A stretch of 64,000 nt of DNA from an uncultured Candidatus Saccharibacteria bacterium (GCA_964648105.1 CAZYMH010000004.1:70083-134082); one strand, 5' to 3'; shown: positions 4,351-20,200, numbered from the stretch's first letter. Notes: generated by a model not told the origin, from the letters alone. Numbers and translations: made by a program.

Positions 4351-4356
4351 ATCACT

Positions 4357-4398: not shown

Positions 4399-4399
4399 T

Positions 4400-5002
4400 T
4401 TATATGTTCACACAATCAAGAATCTGTTGGCCACACTGTTTAATAATCAAATTGGTATGAGATGTGGCTCTTTGAGCTAAATCTTTAGCTACTTCGGTTT
4501 GCAAAATCAACGGGCTACCTAAATCTTCCCATACAATAGTACTCGAATCAGTTATTTTATAATTAGACCCAAATAATACTCCGCAACCTCTCAAGTTAAA
4601 GGAGTCACTATCTTTAGACTTATTTAAGTAAGTAACCCATAAATCAAGAAACTGGTTAGTTTTTGAAAGTCGATAATCACATCGTTTTTCGGCATAATTT
4701 ACAGACACTAAGCCAAAATTACTCGTAAAAGATGATGTTTTATTATGGCTATATTTATCGGCTATCACAAAAAAATCAGGTAATACTTCGTTAGGATTTT
4801 GATACATTGCGGCTTCAAAAGTTTTTTGCAAAAAGCCTGTTGGTAAGGCTAAACTTTTTTGATGTTCGGTAGCTTCTTCATGTGGCAGAGCAATCGTCAT
4901 TGAACCACGGTTAGTTTCTATACCGTCAGGAACCATCTCTAAACCCATATTGGCATTTAGTGATAAAACTGGTGAATTAGATCTAGTTTTTATAAGTGGC
5001 AT
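4400..5002 (-). CDS. hypothetical protein (200 aa) between tig and clpP
   Basis: Track ORF, tightly packed (3 nt after the tig stop). No recognisable motif. Confidence 0.6.
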   Translation of the reverse strand: MPLIKTRSNSPVLSLNANMGLEMVPDGIETNRGSMTIALPHEEATEHQKSLALPTGFLQKTFEAAMYQNPNEVLPDFFVIADKYSHNKTSSFTSNFGLVSVNYAEKRCDYRLSKTNQFLDLWVTYLNKSKDSDSFNLRGCGVLFGSNYKITDSSTIVWEDLGSPLILQTEVAKDLAQRATSHTNLIIKQCGQQILDCVNI

Positions 5003-5005
5003 GTT

Positions 5006-6283
5006 TTAACTTATCCCCTTTAATATATAATCTAGCACTTTTTGAGTTAGAATTCGGCTAGCAATATCTTGACGGGCTGATGGTTTATCGAGTTCAGTTT
5101 GCATAGCAGGGTCTTTATATTGAGCTTTTAGTGCCTGAATTTGCATGTCTAGCTCGTTTTCGGCAACAGTTAAATTTTGATAAGTGGCGATTTCACTCAA
5201 GATAATTGAGGCTTTGATTTGATTTTCAGCTCTTGGGTTAATAACTTGTTTGATATATTCTTGATCAGTTATGTTCTCGCTTGCCAAAAATTCATCATAA
5301 GTTTGGCCCCGATAAGCCAAATTACGTTTAAATTCATCGAGTTCCATCAATGCTTGCTTATCGATTAGCGACTGCGGAACATCAAGTTTACTACCAGCTA
5401 TCAGTTGGTCAATTATTTCGCTTTGTTTCAAGCGAATGTTTTCATTGTCCGCCTCATATTGAAGTTGCTTTTTGACATCTTCTTTTAAGGCAGCGAGATC
5501 ATTCATGCCCATTTTTTTGGCGAACTCATCATCAATTTTGGGTTTAGTTAACTCATGGATTTTTGTAACTTTTACTTCGAATTTAGCTTTTTTGCCTGCT
5601 AGAGCTTTGGTTTGGTAGTTTTTAGGGAAAGTGATGTCAAAACTTTTGGTTTCGTTTGGTTTCATGCCAACTAAATTATCTTCAAACCCTGGAATAAAAC
5701 TATTTGAGCCTAGTAATAAAGGACAATCTTTGCCGTCAGCTCCACTGATTGGCTGGCCTTTTGTATCTGTACCCTTGAAATCAATAATCACTTCATCGCT
5801 ATTTTTAGCTGGTCGAGTGACTTCCTTGCGTTCACTCATGCGAGTAGCTAGATCGTCAATTACTTTCTTGACATCTTCGGCAGATGGTTTTTTATCGATA
5901 GATTTCAGTTTGAAATTTTCGTAATCTGCTAGTTTGGTAACATTGACTACCTCTGTTGTAACATCGAATTCAAGGATTGTATATGGTACGAATTTTTTGA
6001 TGACTACTTTTGGCTCAGTAATTGGTCGGAGTTTTTCGTTTGCAACAGCCAAAGAATATAACCTTGTCAGAGCTTCGTCTAAAAATTCGGTTTGCAACAC
6101 TTGTGAATCAAGATTTTTCTCAACTAATTGAATAGGTGCTTTGCCTGCTCGAAAACCTGCAATTTTGAGGTTTTTGCTAAGTTTTTTTAGGATATTTTGT
6201 TTTATTGGTTCAAGGTCTTCTTTAGAAGCTGTAATATTAACAACTATCTCAGTAGTCCCATTATGAGTGGTATTTACATGCAT
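5006..6283 (-). CDS. tig: trigger factor (ribosome-associated chaperone/PPIase)
   Basis: 425 aa. The N-terminal ribosome-binding region has GFRAGKAP. A central FKBP-like region (DFKGT...GFEDNLVGMK) and a C-terminal helical domain follow. Confidence 0.9.
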   Translation of the reverse strand: MHVNTTHNGTTEIVVNITASKEDLEPIKQNILKKLSKNLKIAGFRAGKAPIQLVEKNLDSQVLQTEFLDEALTRLYSLAVANEKLRPITEPKVVIKKFVPYTILEFDVTTEVVNVTKLADYENFKLKSIDKKPSAEDVKKVIDDLATRMSERKEVTRPAKNSDEVIIDFKGTDTKGQPISGADGKDCPLLLGSNSFIPGFEDNLVGMKPNETKSFDITFPKNYQTKALAGKKAKFEVKVTKIHELTKPKIDDEFAKKMGMNDLAALKEDVKKQLQYEADNENIRLKQSEIIDQLIAGSKLDVPQSLIDKQALMELDEFKRNLAYRGQTYDEFLASENITDQEYIKQVINPRAENQIKASIILSEIATYQNLTVAENELDMQIQALKAQYKDPAMQTELDKPSARQDIASRILTQKVLDYILKGIS

Positions 6284-6328
6284 TTATATATATTAACAGA
6301 TTAGTTCAAGCTTGCCAAAAATATTTAG

Positions 6329-7633
6329 TTATTTGCGAAAATCTTTTATGACAGAGACAAGTCGTTCAGCAGAATGTTTTTCTTCTTGACCAGTTTTTAG
6401 GTCCTTAATAGCGTATTGCTCATCGTTTAGTTCGTTCTCGCCGACGAAAATTACGTATCTAACCCCTAATTTATCGGCTGACTTTAATTTGTTGCCAATT
6501 TTTCGGTCTGTGGCATCGACGGCTAAGTTAAGCCCCATTTCTCGAAAAGATGAGATTAATTTTTGGGCAGGTTCGTAGACATTGCCAATCAAGACAATTA
6601 AGGCGTCGGTAGATGGACTTAAAGTCGGTAGAAGTTTATGGGACTCTAAGAAGTTAGCTAGCGTCACGTCGCCCATTCCAAAACCAATAGTTTGGACTGG
6701 CTCGACACCAAATAATCCGACTAAACCATCGTAACGTCCACCACCAAACATACTACGGTTGTTATCTGGGAAACTATCTTCAACCTCGAATACAAGACCA
6801 CTATAATAATCGAAGCCTCGCATAATCGTGATGTCAAATTCAGCGTTTTCGATACCTGATTTAGATAATAATTCAAGCAAATATTGCAAATTTTTGACAG
6901 AAGTATGGGTTTTTAGCTCATTAGGCAGATCATTCAAAGATTTAATATCTAAAATTTGCAAAATTTTATTCGGTAAATTAGCTTCACGCTGAGACTGAGA
7001 ACACAATAAATCGACTTCTGCTTGAAACTCTGATTTTTGTATTTTATGCATACGATCGATTAGTTTAAATAATGCATGAGCTTTGACGTCACTTAACTGA
7101 AAGTAATCTTGAAACAAAAAGTCCATAAAAACTCGATCATTAAGCTTGATTTTATACATATTTGGCTTAGCACCGAACTCCTTCAAAATAGCGTCGGCAA
7201 CTAATATTATTTCATGATCGGCTGCTAGGTCAGCTTGGCCGAATAAATCGACATTAATTTGCCAATGTTCACGTAGGCGTCCGCGTTGAGGCCGCTCATA
7301 ACGCCATAAATTCGGGATCGAAAACCACCGCAGTGGATAAGCTAACTCTTGCCTGCGAGCAGCAACCATGCGTGACACCGATGGGGTCATTTCTGGCCTG
7401 ATAGCAACTTGACGGCCGCCTCTGTCGGTAAAGGTATATGTTTGCTCACTGACTATCTCTTGGCCAGATTTTGCAGAGTATAAATCGAGCGATTCTAAAA
7501 TCGGAGCATCATATTCTTCATAACCAAACTTTTTGACTGCTCGCCGCATGACGCCAAACATATAATCTTGCAAGCGTTTATCTTCTGGATAAAAGTCTCT
7601 AGCTCCTTTATATGGTTGTATATTTAATGTCAT
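6329..7633 (-). CDS. hisS: histidine--tRNA ligase
   Basis: Class II HisRS motifs are present (GARDFYPED, RYERPQRGRLREHWQ, GGGRYDGL). I prefer the ATG at 7633 (MTLNIQPYKG) because GAGGT lies 7 nt upstream. The track ORF starts at 7666. Confidence 0.93.
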   Translation of the reverse strand: MTLNIQPYKGARDFYPEDKRLQDYMFGVMRRAVKKFGYEEYDAPILESLDLYSAKSGQEIVSEQTYTFTDRGGRQVAIRPEMTPSVSRMVAARRQELAYPLRWFSIPNLWRYERPQRGRLREHWQINVDLFGQADLAADHEIILVADAILKEFGAKPNMYKIKLNDRVFMDFLFQDYFQLSDVKAHALFKLIDRMHKIQKSEFQAEVDLLCSQSQREANLPNKILQILDIKSLNDLPNELKTHTSVKNLQYLLELLSKSGIENAEFDITIMRGFDYYSGLVFEVEDSFPDNNRSMFGGGRYDGLVGLFGVEPVQTIGFGMGDVTLANFLESHKLLPTLSPSTDALIVLIGNVYEPAQKLISSFREMGLNLAVDATDRKIGNKLKSADKLGVRYVIFVGENELNDEQYAIKDLKTGQEEKHSAERLVSVIKDFRK

Positions 7634-7741
7634 TTGTTTTACCTCTTTATAAGCGGTATTATACATTAATTTTTGTTTGTCGTTCTAAATTTTGAGAAGA
7701 TAAATAATTGATTAAATGTGGCTTCAATAGTCAATCGAAAT

Positions 7742-9229
7742 TTAAGCTTTGCTTTTAATAGCAGATTTTTTGCCTTTACGAACAGAGTAACTACTCAAGA
7801 AATCATAGACAGAACTACATTCGGCAAGAGTATTATTGCCGCTGTTAGGAACTTCGATTTTTGATTTAAACCTTAGAACTTCGTTGATAGCTTTATTTTC
7901 TTCTTTAAGTCTCATTATCCTGTACTGAAGAGCCTGTGCAGTTTCGCTGTCAATTAGCCCTAATTCAATACCTCGCTGTAAAGTATCTTGGTAAGTCGCA
8001 CCACTCAACACATTTTTATAGGCAATAAAGTATTTAGTAGATTCTTCATCGCTGCCGATCCATGGCGTTAAATCTATTAATTTGTTAACAATTTCAGATG
8101 GAACTACTGATTCACTTAAGTCGTTTTTTACTACGTGAGTTAATTTACTTGAGATAGATTGACGTAGTCTTCGGCCATCTTGAGTACTATTAGGATTTTC
8201 AACTAATTCTTCTAAGATATCGTCTGATTCTATCGAAGCCGTAGGGTCATCTTTAACTTGGTGACTTTTTCCGATTATTTCAGCTACTTTTTGGCTAAAT
8301 TTGGCATGCTGAGCTTCGACTACTGATTCTACTTGACTTAACTGACTGATTTTGGCAGCGATTTTTTCAATTTCATCTAGTTCTGAGCCAAGTTCTTTGC
8401 TTAATCTTTCATACTCTACCCGTACATCTTCATCAGCCAATAACTCGTCAATTCTACAGTCAATTTCTTTGTCTTCGTTAGTAAGATACAAGATAGTTTC
8501 TGATATTCCAGCTATGGCTTGATCTTCTTGCTCGACATACTGAGTGTGTTTTGCGTCTAAGCCTGAGGCAACTTTTTGATCGATTGCGGCAATCATTTGC
8601 TCTAATTTATTAGCTGGAGATGAGCTTTTTCTATCTGCACTTAATAGTTTTAGTACTAATAAAGTTTCCTTAGCTTCTAATACTTCTTCGATATCGACAT
8701 CATCGCCCAAAAATCCGATGTTGTTGAGCATTTTATATTCGTGGGCAAAAATTTCTTTGTTGAGAGATTCGATTTTTTCATCACTAACCCCTTGATCACT
8801 TTCTTTAAGCGGATTAAATCGGTTAACAATATTTGTAACTGCTTGACTGGTTGCATTTAATTTTTTAGTCTTTCGTGCTTCTTCATCAGTTAACTCTTTC
8901 TTTTCTGCTTCTATTTCTTGTTTTCTGACTTTTAATTTGACCATTTGCGGTCGAATATTCTTAGCTCGTTCTTTGGCCCCATAAATTCGATCGATATCTT
9001 GCTTACATAACTTATTTAAGTCAGCTAAAGAAATTTCGTCGTCTATATTAGCTTCTTTTTCTGAGCCAGTTTCATCTTTATTCTGCGGTTCATTAGCTGA
9101 TACTGTTGCTTCTAGTTCAGCTTCAGCTGGACTTGCAAAAACTTGTTGCAATGCAGTTTGCCATGGGTTTAATGGGGCTAGATTTTTAGGTTGATTTTCG
9201 GAATTTTTATTGGCTTCTGGTGTTGTCAT
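7742..9229 (-). CDS. hypothetical acidic coiled-coil protein (495 aa)
   Basis: Long track ORF, rich in Glu/Lys/Asp with heptad-like stretches. No catalytic motif recognised. Confidence 0.6.
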   Translation of the reverse strand: MTTPEANKNSENQPKNLAPLNPWQTALQQVFASPAEAELEATVSANEPQNKDETGSEKEANIDDEISLADLNKLCKQDIDRIYGAKERAKNIRPQMVKLKVRKQEIEAEKKELTDEEARKTKKLNATSQAVTNIVNRFNPLKESDQGVSDEKIESLNKEIFAHEYKMLNNIGFLGDDVDIEEVLEAKETLLVLKLLSADRKSSSPANKLEQMIAAIDQKVASGLDAKHTQYVEQEDQAIAGISETILYLTNEDKEIDCRIDELLADEDVRVEYERLSKELGSELDEIEKIAAKISQLSQVESVVEAQHAKFSQKVAEIIGKSHQVKDDPTASIESDDILEELVENPNSTQDGRRLRQSISSKLTHVVKNDLSESVVPSEIVNKLIDLTPWIGSDEESTKYFIAYKNVLSGATYQDTLQRGIELGLIDSETAQALQYRIMRLKEENKAINEVLRFKSKIEVPNSGNNTLAECSSVYDFLSSYSVRKGKKSAIKSKA

Positions 9230-9310
9230 ATTTTACTCCTTAAAACATGAATTTAGTAGTAAATTAATATTTTTATTTATTATACAATCTTTATACACTA
9301 TATATTATTT

Positions 9311-9338
9311 TTGTGCAATATTATTTTTTTGTTATAAT
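9311..9338 (+). promoter_or_regulatory. candidate promoter of the L,D-transpeptidase gene (possibly a leaderless mRNA)
   Basis: TTGTGC (9311-9316), a 16-nt spacer and TATAAT (9333-9338). The -10 ends 6 nt before the ATG at 9345 and there is no Shine-Dalgarno sequence. Confidence 0.35.
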
Positions 9339-9344
9339 AATGCT

Positions 9345-10127
9345 ATGAAAATAGAAACAAATGCGGAGATTTTACCAAATATCTCTCGGTCAAGATTGGC
9401 AGCAAGTACTTGTATTGCTGCGTTAGCATTTACGCCATTACTTAGCACGTCTGCCGAAGCGGCGGTACCTTGCCCTAAGCCTGCCAAAATCAAACAAGTA
9501 TCTGAAGGCTGTAAATCGTACCTAATGAAAGTACTCAAACAATCTGTTTATGACGATTTACCCGACGCTAGCCAGCCATATCTTAATCACGCGGTTTTAA
9601 CCTATCAAAAACTAGCAAATAATGGTCTTGTCGAAGACGGTGTGCTAGGACCATTAACCGCTAGATCAATTTTGTCAGGAATCGGCCTAAGTCCGCCTTC
9701 TCCAGACCCACAACAGAGCGGGGCCGAAGTTTATATCGACAAATCTGACCAAGTTATGTATTTTCTCAGAAATGGAGTGGTTAAGAATGTGTTTTCAGTC
9801 TCTACAGGTACTGAGCAAGCCTACCCCGCAACTTACAAAACTGACCCGCAATCAGGTGTAAGAGTGAAAGTTGCCGAAGCAGGAATTGGCGATACGCCAA
9901 CTGGATTATTTAGCGTGCAGTATAAGGCTGGCCCGAATGAAGAAGGGCCTTTAGGCAAGATGCCCTTTGCCAATTATTTCCGCCAAGGTGGCTTTGCAAT
10001 CCATGCTGGCTACGTTGACGCCAATGGTCGTGACAGTCACGGCTGCGTGAGAGTAAATCCTCAGACAATGATAAATATCGTTAATCCTCGACTAAAAATT
10101 GGCACGCCAGTAAAAATAGTCGAATAA
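9345..10127 (+). CDS. L,D-transpeptidase (YkuD domain) with a peptidoglycan-binding domain and signal peptide
   Basis: HGCVRV catalytic motif near the C-terminus. A PG_binding-like segment (LVEDGVLGPLTARSI) and a signal-like segment (AASTCIAALAFTPLLSTSAEA) are present. The start was moved to the internal ATG (MKIETN); the track ORF 9210-9344 extension is hydrophobic junk overlapping the promoter. Confidence 0.85.
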   Translation: MKIETNAEILPNISRSRLAASTCIAALAFTPLLSTSAEAAVPCPKPAKIKQVSEGCKSYLMKVLKQSVYDDLPDASQPYLNHAVLTYQKLANNGLVEDGVLGPLTARSILSGIGLSPPSPDPQQSGAEVYIDKSDQVMYFLRNGVVKNVFSVSTGTEQAYPATYKTDPQSGVRVKVAEAGIGDTPTGLFSVQYKAGPNEEGPLGKMPFANYFRQGGFAIHAGYVDANGRDSHGCVRVNPQTMINIVNPRLKIGTPVKIVE

Positions 10128-10156
10128 AAACTTACCTTAAAAGCAAGTAGAATCTC

Positions 10157-10180
10157 TCACCTTCACGCATTTTTTTGGTT
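10157..10180. repeat. left 24-bp direct repeat (att-like) of the island
   Basis: TCACCTTCACGCATTTTTTTGGTT is identical to 12853-12876. Thirteen nt (ACCTTCACGCATT) are identical to tRNA-Leu gene positions 12958-12970. Confidence 0.9.
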
Positions 10181-10869
10181 CAGCTTAAAAACGTTTTTTT
10201 GGGATTGAAATTGTTAGGTTTTTTAAGTTGACACCATATATTCTCAATTTTATGTCGCAACTCACTCAGTGTCCCATTGTTGATAACATTAAATTCGGCT
10301 GACCATTGGCTTATCTGATATTCGCTTAGTAGGTTTGAACTACCATCTCTATGGAGACTTACTACTGAGCCACTAGAGCGTGTAACAACTTGCTTGTCGG
10401 CAACGGTACGGATACCACCGATAGTTACTAGTTCTATGCCTGTTACTTTAGCAGTAGAAACTTTACTATATACGATATCACTCCATACATTTGGCGAAAT
10501 AAGTTGAATTGCACTCCGTCCAATCCATTCAAGTAATGGGCGGTGCAAGGTTTTTGTTTCCAGTGATAAGTTACGAACTATTGAACCTTCAGATATTTTT
10601 CTTGCATATGCTTCATTAAGTGTTAACAAATCATCTTGTGTAGGGTTATTTATACTCGAGATGCCGAGTACTTTCAGCAATTCACTCCTTTGTGATGTAA
10701 TATCTGACGCATCATCAGGAATAGCGTTCAGCCACATTTGCCCAGCCTCAATAATAGGGTCTGAAAACTCAATATGTTCATGTCGGGATAGTTGAGCAAT
10801 GTCAATGAGCATATTAGCCGCGGTCGTTTTTCCACTACCTGCTGCACCCCCAAAGCCTACAACGTACAC
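10180..10869 (-). CDS. P-loop NTPase, dNMP-kinase-like (229 aa)
   Basis: Walker A GAAGSGKT at residues 9-16. A later IGGIRTVADKQVV...GSVVSLHR segment resembles the core of dNMP-kinase-type proteins. The GTG start overlaps the upstream stop by 1 nt (TAGTG). The TGA stop abuts the left direct repeat. Confidence 0.65.
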   Translation of the reverse strand: MYVVGFGGAAGSGKTTAANMLIDIAQLSRHEHIEFSDPIIEAGQMWLNAIPDDASDITSQRSELLKVLGISSINNPTQDDLLTLNEAYARKISEGSIVRNLSLETKTLHRPLLEWIGRSAIQLISPNVWSDIVYSKVSTAKVTGIELVTIGGIRTVADKQVVTRSSGSVVSLHRDGSSNLLSEYQISQWSAEFNVINNGTLSELRHKIENIWCQLKKPNNFNPKKTFLS

Positions 10870-12116
10870 TACATTCCTACTTCGCTCGGCAAAGTCTGCA
10901 ACATGAATTCCTCTGGCTGCTCTGTGAATATAATCCGCTTGCCAAGTGCATGTGCGTATCCTATCTCAATAAGAGCAGAGGCTCCGACGTAGCCGCCTGA
11001 AGCACACACGACAAGTGCATCACAATCATTTATCATATCTAGATGATATCGCTCCAGTTCAAGTGGAGACATACCTTCTTCACCTTCAAATACCACGAAT
11101 TCCTCTCCAGGATTCTTTGAGTCTTCAAATCGAGGACTCAGTATTTCTACTCGTTGCGATGAAAGTTTCTGTTTAATAGCCAATATATAGGGTAAATGCT
11201 TTCGAAAACTACCTGATAGTACCACTGTACGATACTCTTGCTTTGCGGTACCGTGAATCATATTTAAATCTGATGGGACTAATTTTTTAACGCTGAAATG
11301 TTCGATGATTGCCTGTGCTATCGCTGAACAAGCTCGAGCACCATGCATCCACAAAGGGTCACTCGGCATGAGCAACTCTAACTCTTTGAGTGATATATGC
11401 TCATATACTTCTTGATTTTTGATAGCGAAATCTTTAGGAATGATGAAATATGGATGGTCATAATCCTGGAAGATATCATTAGGTCGCAAATTATACCTTA
11501 CAAGCCGCATATATGTAAGCTCGCCCCCATTATATATTGCGACAGGTGTCTCTATAGAACTTTGAGGTAGAAGCTTTTTAATAGCGTTAACTACTTGGAT
11601 CAAACTGTGACCAGAATAATTCTCATTAAGCCTTGGAAACTCTTCGAGCACTGAACCAACACCAATCTCAAGATAATATCGCTCCAGCACTTCACCGTGC
11701 AATTTGACAATCAGCTCTGTCGAGCCTCCGCCAATATTTATAAGTAGGATTGGTGTATCAGATACGTATTCCGAGGATAGTGCTTTTTCTAGATAAAAAC
11801 CCTCAAGTTCATGGCTCACGATGTTGAAATATAACCCTGTTTCTCGGAAGAAGTCATCAGATAACTTTCGTTTTGCCAACAATGTCATCTTGCGAAAGAG
11901 AGCGGTCGCGAAAACTTTTATTGTCTCGCCGTCATGCTTCTTTTTAATATCCTTTACATAATCAATCAATTCATCTTTATTGGCTTTTATAATTCCTTTT
12001 GCGGGAGCAAATCCCTCCTTGAAGTGAAAGCTTTTAGTTCCTAGAAGAGCTAGGCCTTTGTCTGAAGATTTATATACCTTAACTGTTGATGATCCGATGT
12101 CTATATAGATTGCCAT
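10869..12116 (-). CDS. Ppx/GppA-like ASKHA phosphatase fused to a C-terminal nucleoside 2-deoxyribosyltransferase/DNPH1-like domain
   Basis: Ppx/GppA motifs are present: IYIDIGSSTVKVY, FATALFRKM..ETGLYFNIVSHELEGFY and LLINIGGGSTELIV. The C-terminal ~120 aa (VVLSGSF...CDALVVCASGGYVGASALIEIGYAHALGKRIIF) follow the NDT-fold pattern. I prefer the ATG at 12116 because AGGAG lies 11 nt upstream. The track ORF starts at the GTG at 12128. Confidence 0.7.
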   Translation of the reverse strand: MAIYIDIGSSTVKVYKSSDKGLALLGTKSFHFKEGFAPAKGIIKANKDELIDYVKDIKKKHDGETIKVFATALFRKMTLLAKRKLSDDFFRETGLYFNIVSHELEGFYLEKALSSEYVSDTPILLINIGGGSTELIVKLHGEVLERYYLEIGVGSVLEEFPRLNENYSGHSLIQVVNAIKKLLPQSSIETPVAIYNGGELTYMRLVRYNLRPNDIFQDYDHPYFIIPKDFAIKNQEVYEHISLKELELLMPSDPLWMHGARACSAIAQAIIEHFSVKKLVPSDLNMIHGTAKQEYRTVVLSGSFRKHLPYILAIKQKLSSQRVEILSPRFEDSKNPGEEFVVFEGEEGMSPLELERYHLDMINDCDALVVCASGGYVGASALIEIGYAHALGKRIIFTEQPEEFMLQTLPSEVGM

Positions 12117-12139
12117 ATAATTTAGCACTCCTTCTCATC

Positions 12140-12190
12140 AGTATATCATACTCATATACTCATGTGATACATTTGAGTAACGTGTGTTAC
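12140..12190. promoter_or_regulatory. divergent promoter/operator region of the island
   Basis: Inverted repeat AGTATAT-N7-ATATACT at 12140-12160. Tandem 8-mer ATACTCAT ATACTCAT at 12148-12163. Palindrome GTAAC-GTGT-GTTAC at 12177-12190. A TATACT -10-like hexamer lies at 12155-12160. Confidence 0.45.
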
Positions 12191-12191
12191 A

Positions 12192-12785
12192 GTGGATACT
12201 ATGAAAGATAGTCTAAACGTGCACTTCATAGCTCCAAAATCTAATATAGAGGAAGAAATCGAATACTTTCGGGCAATCGTAAATGCGATTCACGCTCGAG
12301 GTCACACACTTGCAAAAGACTGGCTTGAACCAGGATATTTACTACATACAAATAAGAGACCTCACGAGATCATCGACTGGGCTACTTCTTGCAGGGCAAA
12401 TATTGAGTCTATTCCGTCTAGCGACGTCGTAATAGTGGAATTGTCAACAAAAAGTTTTGGCGTAGGTTATCAGACTGGCCTTGCAGTCTCACAAAAGAAA
12501 CCAACACTACTACTCAGGAGAGAAGGAATCTCTAAGGAAGCATTCTTGGGGGGATTGGACAACCCTTACGTTACAAAGGCTGAATATAGACTAGAGACTA
12601 TAGATAGCATTATCGGAGCTTTTTTAGAAAATGATGACGACGAGATCAAAGACATCCGTTTTAACCTTCTTATTGACAGAAAACTTAATAGTTATCTTAA
12701 GCAGACTTCATTGAAAACAGGTAAGACTAAGGCTGAGATTATCCGCGAGCTTCTGAAGGGTCAACTCGAAAAAAACAACCAATGA
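12192..12785 (+). CDS. NDT/DNPH1-like domain protein with a C-terminal ribbon-helix-helix-like tail (197 aa)
   Basis: VHFIAPK..., then SDVVIVELSTKSFGVGYQTGLAVSQKKPTLLL, which follows the NDT/DNPH1 pattern with Gln where the family Glu is expected. The C-terminus KTKAEIIRELLKGQLEK looks RHH-like. The start is either GTG 12192 (track) or ATG 12201. Confidence 0.65.
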   Translation: MDTMKDSLNVHFIAPKSNIEEEIEYFRAIVNAIHARGHTLAKDWLEPGYLLHTNKRPHEIIDWATSCRANIESIPSSDVVIVELSTKSFGVGYQTGLAVSQKKPTLLLRREGISKEAFLGGLDNPYVTKAEYRLETIDSIIGAFLENDDDEIKDIRFNLLIDRKLNSYLKQTSLKTGKTKAEIIRELLKGQLEKNNQ

Positions 12786-12809
12786 TATTGAAACTTCTTT
12801 TTTAAATTA

Positions 12810-12858
12810 GCTTTCAAGAGTGGACTCCCTTGCAGACTGCCACTGGCAGTCTTCACCT
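12810..12858. repeat. 49-bp repeat element with hairpin, copy 1 (inside the island's right end)
   Basis: GCTTTCAAGAGTGGACTCCCTTGC + AGACTGCCACTGGCAGTCT + TCACCT. The same element occurs at 13180-13228, where the hairpin arms differ by compensatory changes. Confidence 0.85.
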
Positions 12859-12876
12859 TCACGCATTTTTTTGGTT
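12853..12876. repeat. right 24-bp direct repeat (att-like) of the island
   Basis: Identical to 10157-10180. Confidence 0.9.
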
Positions 12877-12902
12877 TGGTTCAAATCTGTCGCCACCCCA
12901 CT

Positions 12903-12932
12903 AAAATAACCTGCTTTACAGCAGGTTATTTT
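12903..12932 (-). terminator. candidate intrinsic terminator downstream of tRNA-Leu
   Basis: Perfect 12-bp inverted repeat AAAATAACCTGC-N6-GCAGGTTATTTT, beginning 3 nt after the tRNA 3' end. A T-run forms the 3' end of the stem on the minus strand. Confidence 0.5.
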
Positions 12933-12935
12933 AGT

Positions 12936-13020
12936 TGGTGCGGATGAAAGGACTTGAACCTTCACGCATTGCTGCACTAGTTCCTAAGACTAGCGTGTCT
13001 ACCAATTCCACCACATCCGC
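12936..13020 (-). tRNA. tRNA-Leu (anticodon UAG), type II with long variable arm, CCA encoded
   Basis: The reverse complement is GCGGATGTGGTGGAATTGGTAGACACGCTAGTCTTAGGAACTAGTGCAGCAATGCGTGAAGGTTCAAGTCCTTTCATCCGCACCA. Folded by hand: acceptor GCGGATG/CATCCGC, anticodon stem CTAGT/ACTAG, loop CTTAGGA, T-arm GAAGG-TTCAAGT-CCTTT. Confidence 0.93.
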
Positions 13021-13022
13021 TT

Positions 13023-13060
13023 AAAATAATATTATAAAGGTTTGAGTTTTATTTGAAAAG
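13023..13060 (-). promoter_or_regulatory. tRNA-Leu promoter region (copy 1 of a 38-bp repeat)
   Basis: The minus strand reads CTTTTCAAATAAAACTCAAACCTTTATAATATTATTTT. TATAAT (13036-13031) lies 10 nt before tRNA +1. The identical 38-mer recurs at 13267-13304. Confidence 0.6.
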
Positions 13061-13116
13061 TATTTGGTTATCTTTCGTGAAAAGGTTTACTTACATACAA
13101 CCATTGGCTGTCTTCG

Positions 13117-13264
13117 CCTTCACGCATTGCTGCATTAGGTCACGTTCCGCGACCCCGTCGCCACATCTTTGAAAGCACAGCTTTCAAGAGTGGACTCCCT
13201 TGCGAAATGCCACTGGCATTTCTCACCTAAGACTAGCGTTCCTACCAATTCCACCTTCGTCCGT
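13117..13264 (-). pseudogene. tRNA-Leu remnant: the 5' half and a variable-arm/T-stem fragment, separated by an ~85-nt insert
   Basis: 13226-13255 matches the D-arm and anticodon-stem region of the tRNA gene (CCTAAGACTAGCGT, CTACCAATTCCACC). 13117-13136 (CCTTCACGCATTGCTGCA) matches 12959-12976. There is no T-loop and no 3' acceptor strand, so it cannot fold as a tRNA. Confidence 0.7.
13180..13228. repeat. 49-bp repeat element with hairpin, copy 2 (inside the tRNA-Leu remnant)
   Basis: GCTTTCAAGAGTGGACTCCCTTGC + GAAATGCCACTGGCATTTC + TCACCT. The flanks are identical to copy 1, and the stem differs at three base pairs, all compensatory. Confidence 0.85.
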
Positions 13265-13266
13265 AA

Positions 13267-13304
13267 AAAATAATATTATAAAGGTTTGAGTTTTATTTGA
13301 AAAG
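13267..13304 (-). repeat. duplicated tRNA-Leu promoter (copy 2 of the 38-bp repeat)
   Basis: Perfect 38/38 identity with 13023-13060, located directly upstream of the tRNA remnant. Confidence 0.85.
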
Positions 13305-13307
13305 GTT

Positions 13308-13844
13308 TTAACCTCGTTCAGCTTTATAAATATAAAGGGTGCTATCACCATAAGATTTTGACTCTAGTAATTTACAGCCATTGAATGGGTACCAATCGGC
13401 TTTTTTGGGAAAAGATAAGATTAATAGTCCATTGTCTTTCAGGTGTTTAGGCAAGACTTTTAAGTCACGGAGCGGTAAGTTGTCGTATGGTGGGTCAGCC
13501 ACAATAATATCGAATAACTCTGATGCATGCCGAGTAGACCACGCGTTTAAGTACGCTCTAACTGGCGTTATTTTATCTTCAACACCAAGAGATTTAATAT
13601 TTTTGTCAATTATCATATGGGCTTTTTTATCAACTTCGATTGATACAACTTTACTCGCTCCGCGGCTGATTGCCTCAAGACCGATTGCACCGCTACCCGC
13701 AAAAGCATCTAAAATGCTTAGCCCCGAAATATCACCCAAAATGCCGAAAATTGCCCCACGCATTTTCTCGCTCATCGGGTGCGTTCGATGCCCATGAGGA
13801 CTTTCGAATATTCGACCACCTAAATTTCCAGATATTATTCTCAT
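13308..13844 (-). CDS. rsmD: 16S rRNA (guanine966-N2)-methyltransferase
   Basis: 178 aa with RIISGNLGGR, the SAM-binding segment LDAFAGSGAIGLEAISRGA, and the DPPY motif. Confidence 0.88.
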   Translation of the reverse strand: MRIISGNLGGRIFESPHGHRTHPMSEKMRGAIFGILGDISGLSILDAFAGSGAIGLEAISRGASKVVSIEVDKKAHMIIDKNIKSLGVEDKITPVRAYLNAWSTRHASELFDIIVADPPYDNLPLRDLKVLPKHLKDNGLLILSFPKKADWYPFNGCKLLESKSYGDSTLYIYKAERG

Positions 13845-13874
13845 TTAGAAATATTATACAACTTATAATCTGAG

Positions 13875-15914
13875 TTAGTTTAAATTAGTAATGCTCCTAG
13901 TTCGTTGAATTTCTTGATTGAGATGCGGATATTTACTTAAATCAAGATTCGATTTAAGGCATTTTTGGGCTGCTAATCTAACTCTGGCTACTAATTTTGT
14001 ATCTGAAATATTGGCAATTCTAAGATCTAACTGACCAGACTGGGCAACACCGTAAATTGCTCCAGGGCCACGTAATTCTAAATCTAACTCAGCTAGCTTA
14101 AAACCATCATTTATTTGAGCCAAACTTTCGATTCTCTGTGGTGGTTGCTTACTATCACTCATAATAAAATAACAAAAAGAGTCGAAATTACCACGACCAA
14201 CTCTACCCCTTAATTGATGTAACTGAGCAAGTCCGAATCTCTCAGCTGCCTCGATCATCATAACTGTTGCGTTTGGCACATCAACACCGACTTCTATTAC
14301 AGTAGTCGAGATTAAGATATCTAGTTCATGATCGATAAATTTAAGCATAATTTCATCTTTTTGGTCCGATTTCATTTTGCCGTGGAGTAAGCCAATACGA
14401 TATTTTTTTAGAATTGTTTTGTGGAGATTTTCGTAAACTTCTTCGGCCGATACTGCCCCAATTAAGTCACTTTGAGTAATTAGTGGACAAACGACAAACA
14501 TCTGTCGCCCAGCAGCTAATTGCTTATCGATAGTCTGATACATAGTTTGGCGTGAATTTGGCGAAATAATTTGTGATTTGATGGGCTGGCGGCCAGCAGG
14601 CATTTCATCTAATACCGACACGTCAAGTTCCCCGTAAACAGTTAATGTCAGTGTCCGTGGGATTGGTGTGGCCGTCATATTAAGGATATGAGGTAAAAAT
14701 TTAGCCTTAGCTTGGAGTTTTTTACGCTGCTCCACACCAAATCTGTGTTGTTCGTCGATTATTATCAGTCCAAGGTTATTAGTGATTACGGAATCAGTTA
14801 TAAGAGCATGGGTGCCAACAATTAAATTTACTTGTTTTTGCTTGATTAGCTCGTGCGAACGCATTTTATCAGTTTTTTTGAGGCTTCCAACTAATAAACC
14901 TACTTCTTGGCTCATACCAATATTACTGAGGAGCTTTTGCAGATTTTGATAATGTTGACGAGCTAAAATCTCGGTGGGAGCCATAAAAGTAACTTGATAG
15001 CCAGCCTTCATCACCATAATCGCTGACATAGCTGCTACCAGTGTCTTACCAGAGCCTACATCACCCTCAACCAATCGATTCATCGGCGTTTTATTTTGCA
15101 TATCCTTATATATTTGCCAGATGACTTTTCTTTGAGCGTTAGTTAACTCAAATGGTAGTGATGACACGAATTTTTTTGCTAAATTCTGATCAAATTTTAC
15201 TTCAATACCAGAAGCAATCGAGAACTGCTGTTTATTGAGTAATGAGGCATAGACCAGCACGAATAACTCATCAAAACTTAATCGTTCTTTGGCGGCTTGA
15301 AGCTGAGTCGAATCTTTCGGGTAGTGAATCCAGCTGATCGCGTCCGAATATTTGATTAGGTTATTTTCTTTAACGACATTGATAGGCAAGATTTCTGGAA
15401 GTTTATTAATATCTGGTTGAAGTTCGGCAATTACTTTGCGAATTTGAGTAGACTTGAGACCTTTGGTTTCTTTGTATATTGGGATTATCCGAGCAACATT
15501 AACTTGAAAAGTTTTTTCTTTTTCGATTGTTGGATTGATAATATTAAGTCGCATTTTATTGAACTCAAATTTACCCGCCAGTAGATACTCGGTTGATTTA
15601 TCGATATATTTTTCGCGGTAAGGTTGGTTGAACCAAACTATTTTGACCGAACCAGTAGGATCAGAAAATATTGCCTCAGTGATATGCATGCCACGTCTGA
15701 CATATCGGCCAGTTATTGATTTAAAATGACCCTTCAGTACGGCTATTTGACTCGGTTTTATTTTGTTAATGGTAACTACATTTGAATAATCATCGTACCG
15801 TCTAGGGTAATAATTTACTAGGTCACGACATGTCAAAACGCCTAATATACGAAACTTTGATGCTAAATGATCACCTACGCCTTTTACGTCTATGAGTGAA
15901 CGGTTAAGGGACAT
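13875..15914 (-). CDS. recG: ATP-dependent DNA helicase RecG
   Basis: 679 aa. An N-terminal wedge/OB region is followed by helicase motifs GDVGSGKT, DEQHRFG and QLRGRVGRG. Confidence 0.93.
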   Translation of the reverse strand: MSLNRSLIDVKGVGDHLASKFRILGVLTCRDLVNYYPRRYDDYSNVVTINKIKPSQIAVLKGHFKSITGRYVRRGMHITEAIFSDPTGSVKIVWFNQPYREKYIDKSTEYLLAGKFEFNKMRLNIINPTIEKEKTFQVNVARIIPIYKETKGLKSTQIRKVIAELQPDINKLPEILPINVVKENNLIKYSDAISWIHYPKDSTQLQAAKERLSFDELFVLVYASLLNKQQFSIASGIEVKFDQNLAKKFVSSLPFELTNAQRKVIWQIYKDMQNKTPMNRLVEGDVGSGKTLVAAMSAIMVMKAGYQVTFMAPTEILARQHYQNLQKLLSNIGMSQEVGLLVGSLKKTDKMRSHELIKQKQVNLIVGTHALITDSVITNNLGLIIIDEQHRFGVEQRKKLQAKAKFLPHILNMTATPIPRTLTLTVYGELDVSVLDEMPAGRQPIKSQIISPNSRQTMYQTIDKQLAAGRQMFVVCPLITQSDLIGAVSAEEVYENLHKTILKKYRIGLLHGKMKSDQKDEIMLKFIDHELDILISTTVIEVGVDVPNATVMMIEAAERFGLAQLHQLRGRVGRGNFDSFCYFIMSDSKQPPQRIESLAQINDGFKLAELDLELRGPGAIYGVAQSGQLDLRIANISDTKLVARVRLAAQKCLKSNLDLSKYPHLNQEIQRTRSITNLN

Positions 15915-15918
15915 ACTA

Positions 15919-17142
15919 TTATTTAGAAATTAGGGCGAACGAATTTTTACCGCGTTTTATGAGGTTAAGGCCACTCAATAAATCGACATTTTCATCTGTT
16001 ATTTTGCGATTATTGACTTGAACCGCTCCACTACTAATAAATGTACGAGCTTGACTTTTCGAAGATGCTAAGCCCAAAACAACCAAATCTTGCAAAAAAT
16101 CATCAGAAACTGGCGAATTTGGTAGTTCGCTTGATAAAATAGCTCTAGACTCTTGATCCAGCTTCAAAAATTCTTGATTACCAAATAAGCCTTCTGTTGC
16201 TGCTACAACTGCCTTAGCTTTTACTTCACCATGAATTAACTTTGTAACTTCATAGGCTAAGTACTTTTGAGCTTTTCTTTCATGCTTCGATTGGTTAAAT
16301 TCTGCCATTAAATTATCAAGGTCTAACTTGTTTATCTCGGTATAAACTTTTATATAGTCCTCAATACCTTCGTCATCTAGGTTAAACCAAAATTGGTAAA
16401 ATTTATAAGGCGATGTCAATTTACTGTCTAGCCAAATTGCTCCGCCCTCGCTTTTGCCAAATTTTTTACCAGTTGTTTTGTCGATTATTAACGGAGTAGA
16501 GAAAACATGTACTTCTTGCCCGTTGTATCTCCTTACCAAGTCTACGCCTGCGATTGCATTTCCCCATTGATCTGCTCCACAGAGTTGAAGAGTCACACCT
16601 AATTTTTCATTTAAATGCAAAAAATCATAGGCTTGAATAAGTACATAGCTAAATTCTCCGTATGAGATACCTTGACCATCAGCACTTAGGCGTTTATGGA
16701 CAAAATCGCGTCCTAACATCTGTCTCATCGGTATGTGTCGACCAATATCGCGTAAAAAATCTAGATAATTAATGTTTTTAAACCATTCATAATTATCAAC
16801 AATTTCAAACTGTAGATCACCAAATATTTGACGATACTGACCAGCAATAGCTTGTTTATTAGCCGAAATTTCTTCAACTGATTTTTTGTCTCTTTCGCTT
16901 GTTTTACCATCTGGATCGCCAATCAAACCTGTCGCTCCACCAACTAGTAATGTTGCTTTATGGCCAGCTAAAATAAATTTACGCACCATCATCGCCGAAG
17001 CCAGGTTGCCAATAGTCATCGAACTGGCACTTGGGTCAACTCCAAAATAAAAATTAATTGGGTTGCCATCTATACCGCTAATATCTTTAAATGTTGTTTG
17101 ATTTACAAAACCTCGCCAGGCTAATTCTTCGGATAATTTCAT
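15919..17142 (-). CDS. tyrS: tyrosine--tRNA ligase
   Basis: TyrRS-like over its full length. KFGKS (the KMSKS equivalent), GADQWGN and a C-terminal S4 domain are present. The HIGH position reads TIGN. The start was moved to the ATG at 17142 (MKLSEEL). Confidence 0.9.
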   Translation of the reverse strand: MKLSEELAWRGFVNQTTFKDISGIDGNPINFYFGVDPSASSMTIGNLASAMMVRKFILAGHKATLLVGGATGLIGDPDGKTSERDKKSVEEISANKQAIAGQYRQIFGDLQFEIVDNYEWFKNINYLDFLRDIGRHIPMRQMLGRDFVHKRLSADGQGISYGEFSYVLIQAYDFLHLNEKLGVTLQLCGADQWGNAIAGVDLVRRYNGQEVHVFSTPLIIDKTTGKKFGKSEGGAIWLDSKLTSPYKFYQFWFNLDDEGIEDYIKVYTEINKLDLDNLMAEFNQSKHERKAQKYLAYEVTKLIHGEVKAKAVVAATEGLFGNQEFLKLDQESRAILSSELPNSPVSDDFLQDLVVLGLASSKSQARTFISSGAVQVNNRKITDENVDLLSGLNLIKRGKNSFALISK

Positions 17143-17230
17143 GATTTTTAGTATAACATGTCCTAATATGTAAATTACGCTCAAGAAAAATATTATTGTA
17201 ATTATGTTTTGATTAAAATATCATTTTTAA

Positions 17231-17239
17231 TGCTATAAT
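17231..17239 (+). promoter_or_regulatory. extended -10 element upstream of the PBP gene
   Basis: TGCTATAAT matches TGnTATAAT and lies about 60 nt upstream of the ATG at 17300. Confidence 0.4.
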
Positions 17240-17299
17240 CAATGTTAGTCGGAGAAAAAACGCTAGAATATTTGTTTTAGGAGTCACAGCCACAATTTT

Positions 17300-20200
17300 A
17301 TGAAAAAATATTTAGATAAATTCAAGAAAAAATCAAGTGGGCTTTATAGTCAAAGTCGCTCAGATTACACCACTAAAAGTGGCAATAAAATTAAACTTAA
17401 TCGGACCTTAAATGGCCGCATGAAGGCCAAACGCGACGAAAAATTAAGAGCCAAAGCCGCTTATCTGGCTACACTACCGCCGGGACGCATAAAACGGACC
17501 ATATACCGCATGCACCCGAAACGTGTTGCTCAATATTGGTTTAGCCGCAAAGGCGGCATTATGGCCTTAAAATTAGCTGGAGTCGGCATATTGGCGGTAT
17601 TTTTGCTTATCATCGGCGTTTTTGCATACTTCCGAAAAGATTTGCCTAATTTACGCGATATTTCTGGAAATAACATCGGTGGATCAATTACTTATTATGA
17701 CCGGACAGGCAAAGTTAAGCTTTGGGAAGATTATGATGCCGTCAAACGAAATCCTGTTCAAGGTAGGGACGTATCGCAGGATATAATGGAAGCAACAGTC
17801 GCAATCGAAGATCAGAATTTCTATAACCACGGTGGTTTCGATATGAAAGGTATTGCCCGAGCTGGTACCAGTAACTTACTCGGTAAAAGCGGTGGTACTC
17901 AAGGCGGCTCTACAATCACTCAGCAATTAGTTAAATTAACCCAAAATTGGACCAAAGATCAAACTTATACCCGTAAAGTAAAAGAATTAATATTAGCCGT
18001 TGAGTTAGAACGAACTTATTCCAAAAAAGAAATTTTGGCAGGTTATCTCGATACAGCACCATATAGCGACATAACTTATGGTGTCGAAGCAGCCATGCAA
18101 GACTATTTCAACAAACCATCTAGCCAGATCACCTTAGATGAGGCCGCTTTTTTAGCATCGATTCCTAAGTCACCGACCATTTATTCGCCCTATGGAGCTA
18201 ACTTCAAGAAAGAAATGTTACAAAATCGTCAAAGATACGTCCTTGACCTTATGGCTCAACAAGGTAAAATCACCGACAAAGAACGCGACGAAGCCAAAAA
18301 GGTTGATACGCTCGCAAAGATCAAGCCTCGCAAACCAAAATATGACGGTATTCAAGCTCCATATTTTGTATTAACTGCTAAAGAGAAGTTAGCTCAAATG
18401 CGTGGTGCCAACGCAGTATCGTTAGGTGGGCTTAAAGTAACGACGACACTTGATCTTGATAAACAAAAAATCGCCGAAGAAGAAGTTCAAAAAGGCTTGC
18501 GTCAAGTTCAACGCCAAGGTGGTGACACCATGGGGTTTGTCTCTGAGGATGTCAAGACTGGTCAAGTGGTTGCCTTAGTTGGTGGAGTTGACTTCAATAA
18601 TCCCGTGTACGGCCAAAATAATTATGCCCGAACTAAGTTACCGCCAGGGTCTAGCTTTAAGCCTTATGACTATTTGTCGGCAATCGAGAATACTGATAGT
18701 TTTGGGGCTGGAGCAGTACTGTACGATGTTCAAGAACCAATCGATGGCTATCCTTGTTCGAATAAAAACCGACCGAAAAGCGGTGGAAACTGCTTGTTTG
18801 ACTACGATTTCCGCTACCCAGGTCCCTTGACATTGCGTTATGCAATTGGTGGTTCACGTAATGTGCCAGCTGTTAAGGCAATGGCCATCGCAGGTGTTGA
18901 TAAAACAATCCAAACGGCTGAAAAAATTGGGCTTAAAGATACTGGCGATGATCGGATTCAGGGAATGGGTTATAAATGCTACAACGACGACGTATTAACC
19001 AGCGAAAAAGAGTGCGGAACTTCATCGGCTATTGGTGACGGTGCTTACCTAAAATTAGATGAACATGTCCATGCTTATGCTACTATTTCACGAAATGGTA
19101 AGTTAATTCCTCAGTCGTATATCTTGAAAATTGAAGATTCATCGGGTAAAACAGTCGAAGAATGGAAGCCTTCAGAAGGCAAACAAGCTGTTCGTGATGA
19201 AGCGGCTTATATTGTGGCTGATATGATGGAAGACCCAAATGCCAGTTATCTAGCCAGCAAACCACACCGTTATAAAGGACACAAGTTTGCGGTTAAAACT
19301 GGTACAACTAATGACTCTAAAGATGGTTGGATGATGGGCTATTCGACTCAATACGCCGCTGGTGTATGGGTAGGTTACCACGACCGAACCAAAGAAATGT
19401 CTGGATTTATGGAAAATATGACACAGCCTATTTGGCAAAGCTACATGCGTCGAGTTCATGATAATTTGAAGCCTGAAGAACGTGTCAAGCCAGCTGGTAT
19501 ACAATCATTGCCGTCTTATATTGTCCGGACTCATGTTGGCGTTAGTTCAGTTGAGCCAAGTCCTGCTAATGATCTATTCCCATCTTGGTACAAAAAGAAA
19601 GCCAGTGGATCAAAAGAGATCATCGATAAAGTATCAAACAAATTGGCAACTGCTTGTACGCCTGAGTTGGCCAAATTATCGGCTGGTAATGCCGTTGCTA
19701 GCCAGTTCTCGGCTGATAAATTCCACGGTGGTTCGGCGGCTTCGGCAAATACCAGCGAGAAAGATGATGTCCATAAATGTGAGGATGCCAAACCAAGTAT
19801 TAATGTGACTGTTAGCGGCAAACAAGTTGTGGCCACTGCCTCTCAAGGCACTCACCCACTATCGAGCAGTAAATTCCCTGGTACTATAAATATTAAAATC
19901 GATGGTCAGACCGTTCAGTCTTACCCAGTCTCCGACAGTCCTGCATCGGTTACTTATACAGCCACTGTTTTTGGTCCGCACAGTGTTTCAGCAGAAATCG
20001 TAGACAGCGTTTTGTATAGTGCAATCGATACTGTTTCGGCCGACTTTGGTCAAGACACCGCGACAGTTACACCTGCCAGTACTCTAACGGTCTCAGCCAA
20101 AAAAGTTGGTAGTAACACTAATATTTCGTGGAGTGGCGGAAATGGAACAGTTAATATCTTTAATCGAACCACGTCGAATCAACTCTCTTGCCCGAGTACT

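Follow-up and report, generated by a model that had tools for sequence, protein, structure and literature searches.

A three-gene cassette between 24-bp direct repeats at a tRNA-Leu gene of an uncultured Candidatus Saccharibacteria bacterium, and an apparently undescribed family of structured elements beside tRNA genes

The 64,000-nt stretch of DNA analyzed here (CAZYMH010000004.1:70083-134082 of GCA_964648105.1, from an uncultured Candidatus Saccharibacteria bacterium; hereafter the window, numbered from its first letter) carries a 2.7-kb segment of three genes, referred to as the cassette, which is bounded by perfect 24-bp direct repeats and lies on the 3' side of a tRNA-Leu(UAG) gene. At the same tRNA gene, a covariance model detects three copies (E_a, E_b and E_c), all that the window contains, of a structured element of ~90 nt termed E in the following. 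The features of this locus, with the tRNA on the minus strand, are listed below.

10157-10180: left 24-mer, which on the minus strand (tRNA sense) reads AACCAAAAA + AATGCGTGAAGG + TGA
10180-10869, minus strand: cassette gene 1, a 229-aa P-loop protein with weak nucleotide-kinase-like matches
10869-12116, minus strand: cassette gene 2, a 415-aa fusion of a Ppx/GppA-type ASKHA domain and a nucleoside 2-deoxyribosyltransferase-like (NDT-like) domain
12201-12785, plus strand: cassette gene 3, a 194-aa NDT-like protein, divergent from gene 2
12807-12855, minus strand: E_a, a truncated E (40.9 bits, E-value 2.9e-9; match 12862->12768, of which only the first ~46 nt align well)
12853-12876: right 24-mer, made up of spacer, a 13-nt piece of the tRNA-Leu variable arm and T-stem, and TGA, the first 3 nt of E_a
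12878-12900, plus strand: inverted T-loop/acceptor-like fragment GGTTCAAATCTGTCGCCACCCCA, within the stereotyped 5' region of the unit
12897-12938: 19-bp hairpin that directly follows the tRNA 3' end, interpreted as a bidirectional terminator
12936-13020, minus strand: intact tRNA-Leu(UAG), the array anchor and the sole tRNA in the window (ARAGORN, Rfam)
13055-13141, minus strand: remainder of a pseudo-tRNA (anticodon-stem 3' strand, variable arm and T-stem 5' strand at 13141->13117) together with E_b
13123->13055 (match), minus strand: E_b, a strongly degenerate E at the T-loop position (14.6 bits, E-value 0.034)
13142-13225, minus strand: E_c, a full-length E (104.8 bits, E-value 2.2e-26; match 13232->13127)
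13226-13262, minus strand: 5' part (positions ~1-37) of a degenerate tRNA-Leu duplicate, 93% identity
13260-13309, minus strand: duplicate of the 50-nt tRNA upstream region, with a TATAAT box, 90% identical to 13016-13065 before the intact tRNA

The repeats themselves had been pointed out in a first-pass annotation of this DNA, and both their coordinates and their relation to the tRNA proved exact. The 24-mer (TCACCTTCACGCATTTTTTTGGTT, both copies on the plus strand) has no further copy in the 64-kb window, even with up to 3 mismatches (shuffled sequence expects 0), and a search of the metagenome collection returned 0 matches; its 19-mer core gave two matches in viral contigs, with unrelated flanks, which were dismissed as chance. 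Thirteen of its nucleotides, at 10159-10171 and 12855-12867 (blastn-short), equal positions 51-63 of tRNA-Leu(UAG) (AATGCGTGAAGGT in tRNA sense), which take in the variable arm on its 3' side, the T-stem on its 5' strand and T54, an identity with a chance probability of ~3e-5 by our own estimate. The remaining 11 of the 24 nt are not derived from the tRNA and consist of the 9-nt spacer AACCAAAAA, which differs between genomes, i.e., is not conserved, plus the 2 nt of E that follow the shared T. Identity is perfect over 24 nt and falls to background level directly outside both edges; when one 5-nt indel (TGGTT) is allowed, the repeat extends by CA to 10182 and 12883 (26 nt of identity), and both copies then carry GGTTCA, a T-loop-like motif. 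Both repeats lie outside the tRNA gene, the one at 12853-12876 lying 60 nt beyond the tRNA 3' end, and both lack the T-loop as well as the acceptor part and 3' end of the tRNA. The stop codon of the 229-aa gene shares one base with the left repeat.

Read in tRNA sense, the locus begins with a copy of the upstream region and a tRNA 5' part cut after CTTAGG, which is followed by an 84-nt insert (E_c); next come the anticodon-stem 3' strand, variable arm and T-stem 5' strand, a degenerate insert (E_b), the upstream region, the intact tRNA and the terminator hairpin; and, finally, the inverted T-loop-like piece, the spacer AACCAAAAA, AATGCGTGAAGG, an insert cut after ~46 nt (E_a) and the cassette. 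E_c interrupts the degenerate tRNA-Leu duplicate in its anticodon loop, after CTTAGG. In E_a, hairpin P1 is intact, as is P2 on its 5' strand; the break, directly after GAAAGCT in the tip of P2, is 21 nt away from where the 194-aa gene has its stop codon. A repeat finder recovers 12807-12867 again at 13177-13237 and, in degenerate form, at 13068-13128, as well as duplicates of the tRNA upstream 50 nt, 5' half and variable arm within 13100-13309; an identical 25-nt stretch is shared by E_a (12809-12833) and E_c (13179-13203). The fragment GGTTCAAATCTGTCGCCACCCCA uses the same terminator hairpin as tRNA-Leu and resembles what we take to be a tRNA-His 3' end (T-loop, ..GCCACC, C73, CCA) on the strand opposite tRNA-Leu; analogous opposite-strand ends with CCA occur in E units of three other loci (L055, L117 and L130).

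The significance of this arrangement became apparent from comparison with other genomes. Three distant relatives (L002, L009 and L030) have the same layout behind their tRNA-Leu genes, with hairpin stems that differ by compensatory changes, and a search pattern built from three copies (AGGTGA-N5-GCCAGTGGC-N5-GCAAGG, 21 fixed bases) matched 98 stretches in the metagenome collection vs. ~0.5 expected by chance (a rough estimate of our own). A second match in L030 (19763-19871), considered as a parallel island, was set aside as it is not linked to tRNA-Leu. The alignment of 47 non-identical standard-length copies (~105 columns) defines E as an element of ~90 nt with three hairpins and 34 pairs, 25 of which show double compensatory changes (RNAalifold). 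Standard pairs occupy 95.5% of the cells concerned vs. 74.4% in shuffles, cells changed on both sides number 315 vs. 87, and 0 of 500 shuffles matched the observed values; sliding the pairing partners by 1-3 columns leaves 27-44% pairing. Invariance at the bases fixed by the search pattern is an ascertainment effect; the covariation sits at pattern-free positions. Of the 47 sequences, 44 retain a G.U pair in the third hairpin, which assigns the structure to the tRNA-sense strand, be it RNA or single-stranded DNA.

No Rfam 15 family covers E, either at E-value <= 1 (window copy) or at gathering score (20 loci), and the only Rfam matches reported, to tRNA, rRNA and the L10 leader, do not overlap it. 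A full-text literature search yielded no description of E, the only related reports being of group I introns in tRNA anticodon loops of Patescibacteria, which are a different thing. E also seems to bear no convincing resemblance to hammerhead, twister, pistol, hatchet or hepatitis delta virus-like ribozymes or to group II domain V. E is a real and widespread family of structured element, which apparently has not been described before.

A covariance model of this family (R1) gave 136 matches at E-value <= 0.01 in 98 loci, and 97 distinct copies from the 108 best-scoring matches were classified by position. Most (but not all) have a tRNA gene on the same strand: 42 of 97 lie within 150 nt downstream of it and 22 within 150 nt upstream, with a further 10 at 275-2945 nt downstream and four more than 150 nt upstream, and 19 have no same-strand tRNA in the sequence at hand. 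The tRNAs within 150 nt of E represent 18 anticodon types, the commonest being Leu, Ser(GGA), Lys, Met and Gln. Two layouts prevail. In the upstream copies, a tRNA 5' part runs into E and then into a few bases from the 3' strand of the T-arm, ahead of ~35 nt with a -10-like box and the intact tRNA. Downstream copies follow the terminator with an inverted complement of the T-arm region, a spacer, a tRNA piece ending at T54, E, the tRNA end from C56 to CCA and another terminator. The usual host loop is the T-loop, between positions 54 and 56, with D-loops used in L012 and L066 and anticodon loops in the window and L112; by inspection, two host bases are replaced by E at each junction read. The 5' flank of E is usually AGG, though this is part of the search pattern, and L012 has TTG instead. 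The tRNA-identical stretch 5' of E ranges from 0 to 14 nt in 29 units and usually measures 12-14 nt, the 13 nt of the window being typical. We also considered E as an intron of working tRNAs and rejected this idea: in silico removal of E never gives a sole complete tRNA, and the junction-spanning calls join or adjoin an adjacent intact gene.

Some copies depart from the tRNA setting. In six loci (L057, L059, L074, L075, L087 and L147), an outer E contains a nested E-like copy, which follows CGGG at the third-hairpin base; the nested copies have P1 loop variants GCCTGTGGC and GCTAGTAGC, and two bases are again replaced. Such nesting is a hallmark of mobile insertion. Other copies sit in the loop of a non-tRNA hairpin (GATGAGAGG, then E, then ..CCTCTCAT), a conserved, small RNA-like host for which no Rfam family was named:

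L058:3795-3900: E in the non-tRNA hairpin
L070:10647-10751: E in the non-tRNA hairpin
L081:3209-3288: E in the non-tRNA hairpin, beside 5S and 23S rRNA genes
L093:2794-2900: E in the non-tRNA hairpin
L103:7976-8080: E in the non-tRNA hairpin

Measured against this family, the right repeat is the canonical front edge of a downstream E unit, since an E match lies beside a same-strand tRNA and is preceded by a 13-nt tRNA piece ending at T54. The left repeat is a front edge too (inverted T-loop bit TGAACC, spacer, 13-nt tRNA piece, TGA), behind which the element is absent: the covariance model has no match at 10100-10160 with filters off and E-value <= 10. A degenerate E after the left repeat (GAGATTCTACTTGCTTTTAAGG), for which ~17 of 31 positions agree by eye, is not claimed given this lack of a model match. 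The window also differs from intact units in having neither a tRNA 3' end (C56 to CCA) with a terminator behind E nor the 7-9 nt copies of the tRNA end that are found elsewhere. The window is therefore classed as a decayed instance of an E-unit array.

In other genomes, cargo of 0.5-2.3 kb is found between paired E units downstream of a tRNA, and in three loci a single distal E with the 3' end of the same tRNA closes cargo of 1.6-2.9 kb. The parallel arrays are as follows.

L114, tRNA-Met: unit, 2.1 kb with three ORFs (one with a weak HipA-like match), second unit; 182-nt repeated block, 91% identity
L104, tRNA-Lys: one SnoaL-like ORF between two units
L079, tRNA-Leu(GAG): ~0.7 kb between two units
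L133, tRNA-Leu(CAG): two cargo segments (one with an RHH-ParE pair), then the distal unit
L110, tRNA-Pro: cargo, single distal E
L126, tRNA-Met: dienelactone hydrolase cargo, single distal E
L102, tRNA-Trp: 604-aa reverse transcriptase (2343-4157; RVT_1, E-value 2e-11) and a 243-aa partner, distal E unit

In well-preserved arrays, each segment is bounded by 7-9 nt that repeat the very 3' terminus of the tRNA (GCGCACCA, GCTACCA, CCCTCCA), with a terminator hairpin behind them. The reverse transcriptase of L102 may be a defense-type enzyme carried in an array. E units can also pile up in tandem on the same side of one tRNA, as many as three or four of them and in some cases with additional hairpins, at tRNA-Gln and tRNA-Pro genes (L060:570-1450 and L078:4011-4662), which shows repeated accretion at one gene.

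With these parallels in hand, we read the 2.7-kb segment as cargo in a decayed, tRNA-linked E-unit array, in which the 24-mers would represent the 5' junctions of two units and entry would have occurred by one crossover there, an explanation to which we give an even chance of being correct. The proposed route is that a cassette circle carrying its own unit (E_a) would have entered a resident unit by a single Campbell-type crossover inside the shared 24-30 bp. The agent might be a trans-acting recombinase or else homologous recombination over a stretch close to the minimum for RecA; in E. coli, efficient RecA-dependent exchange needs about 24-27 bp at the least. A single crossover between diverged units implies a duplicated shared stretch, with each side keeping the flank of its own parent and an abrupt loss of similarity; the perfect 24 nt with background flanks, despite a non-conserved spacer, therefore favor Campbell-type entry. 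Later decay would have stripped away the remainder of E together with the copies of the tRNA 3' end, and the cassette is now probably fixed. Predicted excision products are an empty site, AGAATCTC-24mer-TGGTTCAAATC, and a circle with the junction GGCAGTCT-24mer-CAGCTTAAAAACG.

A number of observations weigh against this explanation. Relatives are too distant (at best 47% for the L,D-transpeptidase, LDT, and 70% for RsmD) to reveal an empty site. No E is detectable behind the left repeat, so the resident unit is deduced only from the shared 24-30 nt. A search for tRNA 3'-end copies at the cassette borders (ATCCGCACCA, <=2 mismatches) found none, which places the proposed crossover off the normal array site. 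The Pfam scan of 25 window ORFs (out of 57 of at least 90 aa) turned up no recombinase, and within 4 kb of E the 98 loci share no recurrent protein family apart from the housekeeping neighbors of the tRNAs. The cassette, with a GC content of 0.38-0.43, is barely set apart from its flanks, and an import signature in composition is not evident from this comparison. Finally, the cassette family is so conserved in the candidate phyla radiation (CPR) that it may be an ordinary resident module that was moved by rearrangement and not imported.

The last point draws on the relatives of the cassette genes. For the gene 2 fusion, 590 homologues were found at E-value <= 1e-5, and the matches listed include 119 non-self proteins at 53-76% identity and, by name, members of Saccharimonadales, Gracilibacteria, WWE3 and Babeliales. 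Gene 1 has weak matches to AAA_17 (E-value 0.018) and dephospho-CoA kinase (E-value 0.16), and partners of it at 42-47% identity stand behind the fusion gene in L036 and L040. The identical three-gene arrangement recurs in L036 between ruvC and an LTD-domain gene, with protein identities of 80, 76 and 47% (the 80% being that of the gene 3 homologue); L040 has the pair of fusion and P-loop genes and L038 a reduced form, in the neighborhood of Ham1, NUDIX, guanylate kinase and CYTH genes. In these other Saccharibacteria genomes, neither a tRNA nor flanking direct repeats nor E were found around the cassette. Judging by these sequences, the cassette appears to be a conserved nucleotide-metabolism module; it is differently placed in each genome and is not itself tRNA-seeking. 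The PADLOC defense models gave no match to the three cassette proteins. The Ppx/GppA-NDT fusion is usually accompanied by a P-loop protein of 230 aa and is unusually conserved across the named matches, which come from several CPR lineages and Babeliales; the pair is an uncharacterized nucleotide-handling module of small-genome symbionts.

The main rival to entry by crossover is local duplication: the repeats would be the remains of a tandem duplication of E units, between which the cassette came by an unrelated rearrangement or deletion, with the 24 nt being the best-preserved or a gene-converted part. Tandem units at one tRNA are indeed common (L063, L078, L060 and L133), and the window itself bears traces of local copying, namely the identical 25-nt stretch in E_a and E_c and the duplicated upstream region and tRNA 5' half. 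Yet similarity drops from 100% to background at both edges with no gradual decay, the copies are identical across the non-conserved spacer AACCAAAAA, which implies very recent common ancestry just there, and E follows the right copy and not the left. Taken together, local duplication is possible and, in our judgment, rather unlikely.

Less probable again is the reading of the first-pass annotation, an attL/attR pair of a tRNA-targeting integrative element, assessed here as a classical tyrosine-integrase island in which the 24-mer is the core, the crossover took place at the T-loop of tRNA-Leu and the integrase was lost or acts in trans. To assess it, the neighborhood of the tRNA has to be considered. 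The window belongs to a Saccharimonadales (CPR) genome. RecG relatives are confined to Saccharimonadales and other Patescibacteria, at <=60% identity (44-60%), and the order conserved among relatives is tyrS-recG-(x)-rsmD-tRNA-Leu(UAG)-hisS. The hisS gene starts 14-81 nt past the tRNA in four of them (L004, L006, L008 and L013) and 0.9-3.7 kb past it in others, vs. 5.3 kb in the window. Since relatives have hisS almost directly behind tRNA-Leu, the region 7.7-12.9 kb is a lineage-specific insertion on the tRNA 3' side, of which the part next to hisS comprises the following.

7742-10127: older lineage-specific insertion between the array and hisS, with the 495-aa protein and the L,D-transpeptidase
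7742-9229, minus strand: 495-aa protein with no Pfam entry on record, acidic and of low complexity, between hisS and the L,D-transpeptidase
9345-10127, plus strand: L,D-transpeptidase (LDT)

A tblastn search of 32 related loci found no relative of the 495-aa protein, which is therefore counted in the same insertion zone. The closest homologues in the collections are 47% identical for LDT and 70% for RsmD. As informants on an empty site, LDT homologues had to be discarded, being too distant (<=47%) and in other gene contexts, as did the nearest RsmD relatives (66-70%), whose contigs end at or inside tRNA-Leu; exact-protein look-ups of the neighbors returned contigs of the same sample only and no variant site. 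In one relative (L049; RsmD 68%), the gene of a 523-aa large serine recombinase (11296-12931) overlaps the last 22 nt of tRNA-Leu(UAG) and ends within its T-loop, its final codons matching the tRNA 3' end in reverse complement; behind it lie small unrelated genes, and the whole resembles an integrative element at the same tRNA, at which no copy of E was detected. Because of this recombinase, tRNA-Leu(UAG) is a recurrent integration target.

The integrase reading gains from this hot spot, from the variable distance between tRNA and hisS and from direct repeats with tRNA-derived sequence that bound cargo beside a tRNA, and this part of the earlier claim (tRNA-derived direct repeats flanking cargo in a 3' insertion zone) stands. 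What is not supported is the specific mechanism, an integrase crossover with the 24-mer as core: neither repeat is in the tRNA gene, both lack the T-loop and the tRNA 3' end, 11 of 24 nt are non-tRNA, the cassette holds no integrase and none turned up among the window ORFs scanned, and the cassette occurs elsewhere without att-like repeats or tRNA. The end of the homology at the T-loop, which had been taken as an integrase crossover point, is a family-wide trait, as tRNA homology stops there because E is inserted at T54 across the family and not because of a crossover. We regard a classical integrase island as improbable here. The observation of three genes between the repeats with no recombinase among them was reproduced by ORF and domain scans (no recombinase domain in the three cassette ORFs), in line with the suggestion that the island is decayed or mobilized in trans, as any mobility must be in trans or lost.

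The possibility of an assembly artefact, i.e., a contig misjoined through short repeats around tRNA-Leu, is suggested by an independent Logan assembly of SRR13355620 (the only run found with identical sequence), which breaks at 12854 and 13275, and by the contigs of the nearest relatives, which break inside the tRNA-Leu 5' half. This assembly equals the window at 1345-12854 and 13275-21844 and lacks the stretch 12855-13274. However, one of its contigs runs unbranched and with 0 mismatches from LDT across the left repeat and the entire cassette into E_a, as far as 12854, so the left repeat and the cassette-to-E_a junction were assembled independently; 12852-12862 is the canonical T-stem-to-E junction of dozens of genomes, making the right junction biologically coherent; and the breaks are explained by exact repeats of at least 31 nt at 13027-13057 and 13271-13305. 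The order inside 12855-13274 comes from the contig alone but agrees with the family layout, and a misjoin is very improbable. More generally, E units probably cause contigs to break systematically at Patescibacteria tRNA genes; independent de Bruijn assemblies end at the borders of the tRNA-Leu repeat field here and within the tRNA-Leu 5' half in the nearest relatives (L148-L150). A chance repeat, or a dispersed genome-wide one such as the first-pass annotation had named as refuting its own proposal, which has nothing in its favor except the T-rich, low-complexity middle of the 24-mer, is almost certainly wrong given the 0 copies expected in shuffles, the lack of any further copy in 64 kb or the metagenome collection and the unlikely 13-nt tRNA identity.

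Turning from the window to the family, a side-by-side comparison of E units with established systems reveals partial agreement with several of them, as well as substantial differences. tRNA-linked islands, for which Williams (2002) reportedly provided a classification of the tRNA sublocations used by tyrosine integrases, likewise have cargo on the tRNA 3' side, a distal copy of the tRNA 3' part, tandem accretion and toxin-antitoxin or defense-type genes; unlike them, E units have no adjoining integrase, their distal tRNA copy has a structured element in its T-loop, they also occur upstream as 5' pseudo-copies, and the window repeat is not part of the tRNA gene. Integron attC sites and clusters of attC sites lacking integron-integrases (CALINs) share with E arrays the small cargo units closed by a structured, strand-specific site, the richness in toxin-antitoxin genes and a recombinase that is not adjacent, whereas E is conserved in both sequence and structure and has three hairpins vs. 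one imperfect palindrome, and its arrays are anchored on tRNA genes with a terminator starting each segment. No IntI was found among the window ORFs scanned or within 4 kb of E, and no GTTRRRY/RYYYAAC pair was seen by eye in the E consensus, no formal attC model having been run.

Miniature derivatives of IS200/IS605 are comparable in that E is short, ORF-less and strand-specific, has hairpins near both ends, occurs in single-stranded loop contexts and as nested copies, and shows no target duplication; they differ in that the central long hairpin and junction motifs of E covary and are conserved like RNA and in that two host nucleotides are apparently replaced. Neither a TnpA nor a TnpB partner was found within 4 kb of E. 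Group I introns in tRNAs of Patescibacteria are also structured insertions in a tRNA loop within the same phylum, whereas E is ~90 nt long, uses T-, D- and anticodon loops and occurs only in partial or degenerate tRNA copies beside an intact gene; no Rfam group I intron match overlies E under the thresholds given above. Strict E patterns had 0 matches in the viral contig collection.

Of the interpretations of E itself, we favor a structured module that is mobile and strand-specific and serves to mark or mediate recombination beside tRNA genes. In its fullest form, which we put forward tentatively and at something short of an even chance, E would be an undescribed class of nucleic-acid element in Patescibacteria that inserts in the hairpin loops of tRNA-like sequences and, together with tRNA 3'-end copies, organizes integron-like arrays of accessory cassettes beside tRNA genes; the arrays would rely on a recombinase whose gene lies elsewhere or on the structure itself, in RNA or single-stranded DNA form, and the 24-mer pair of the window would be a fossil of this process.

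Overall, E arrays explain some practical problems, such as assembly breaks at tRNA loci and pseudo-tRNAs that annotators will miss or miscall. Beyond this, the genomes of CPR/Patescibacteria are tiny and thought to be poor in mobile elements, and their gain of accessory genes is poorly understood. If E is a loop-targeting miniature transposon, it would be an unusual one, surviving only in tRNA pseudo-copies. If E is the recognition structure of a cassette exchange, it would offer a way into the study of gene flux in this phylum and might involve a new chemistry of site-specific recombination.

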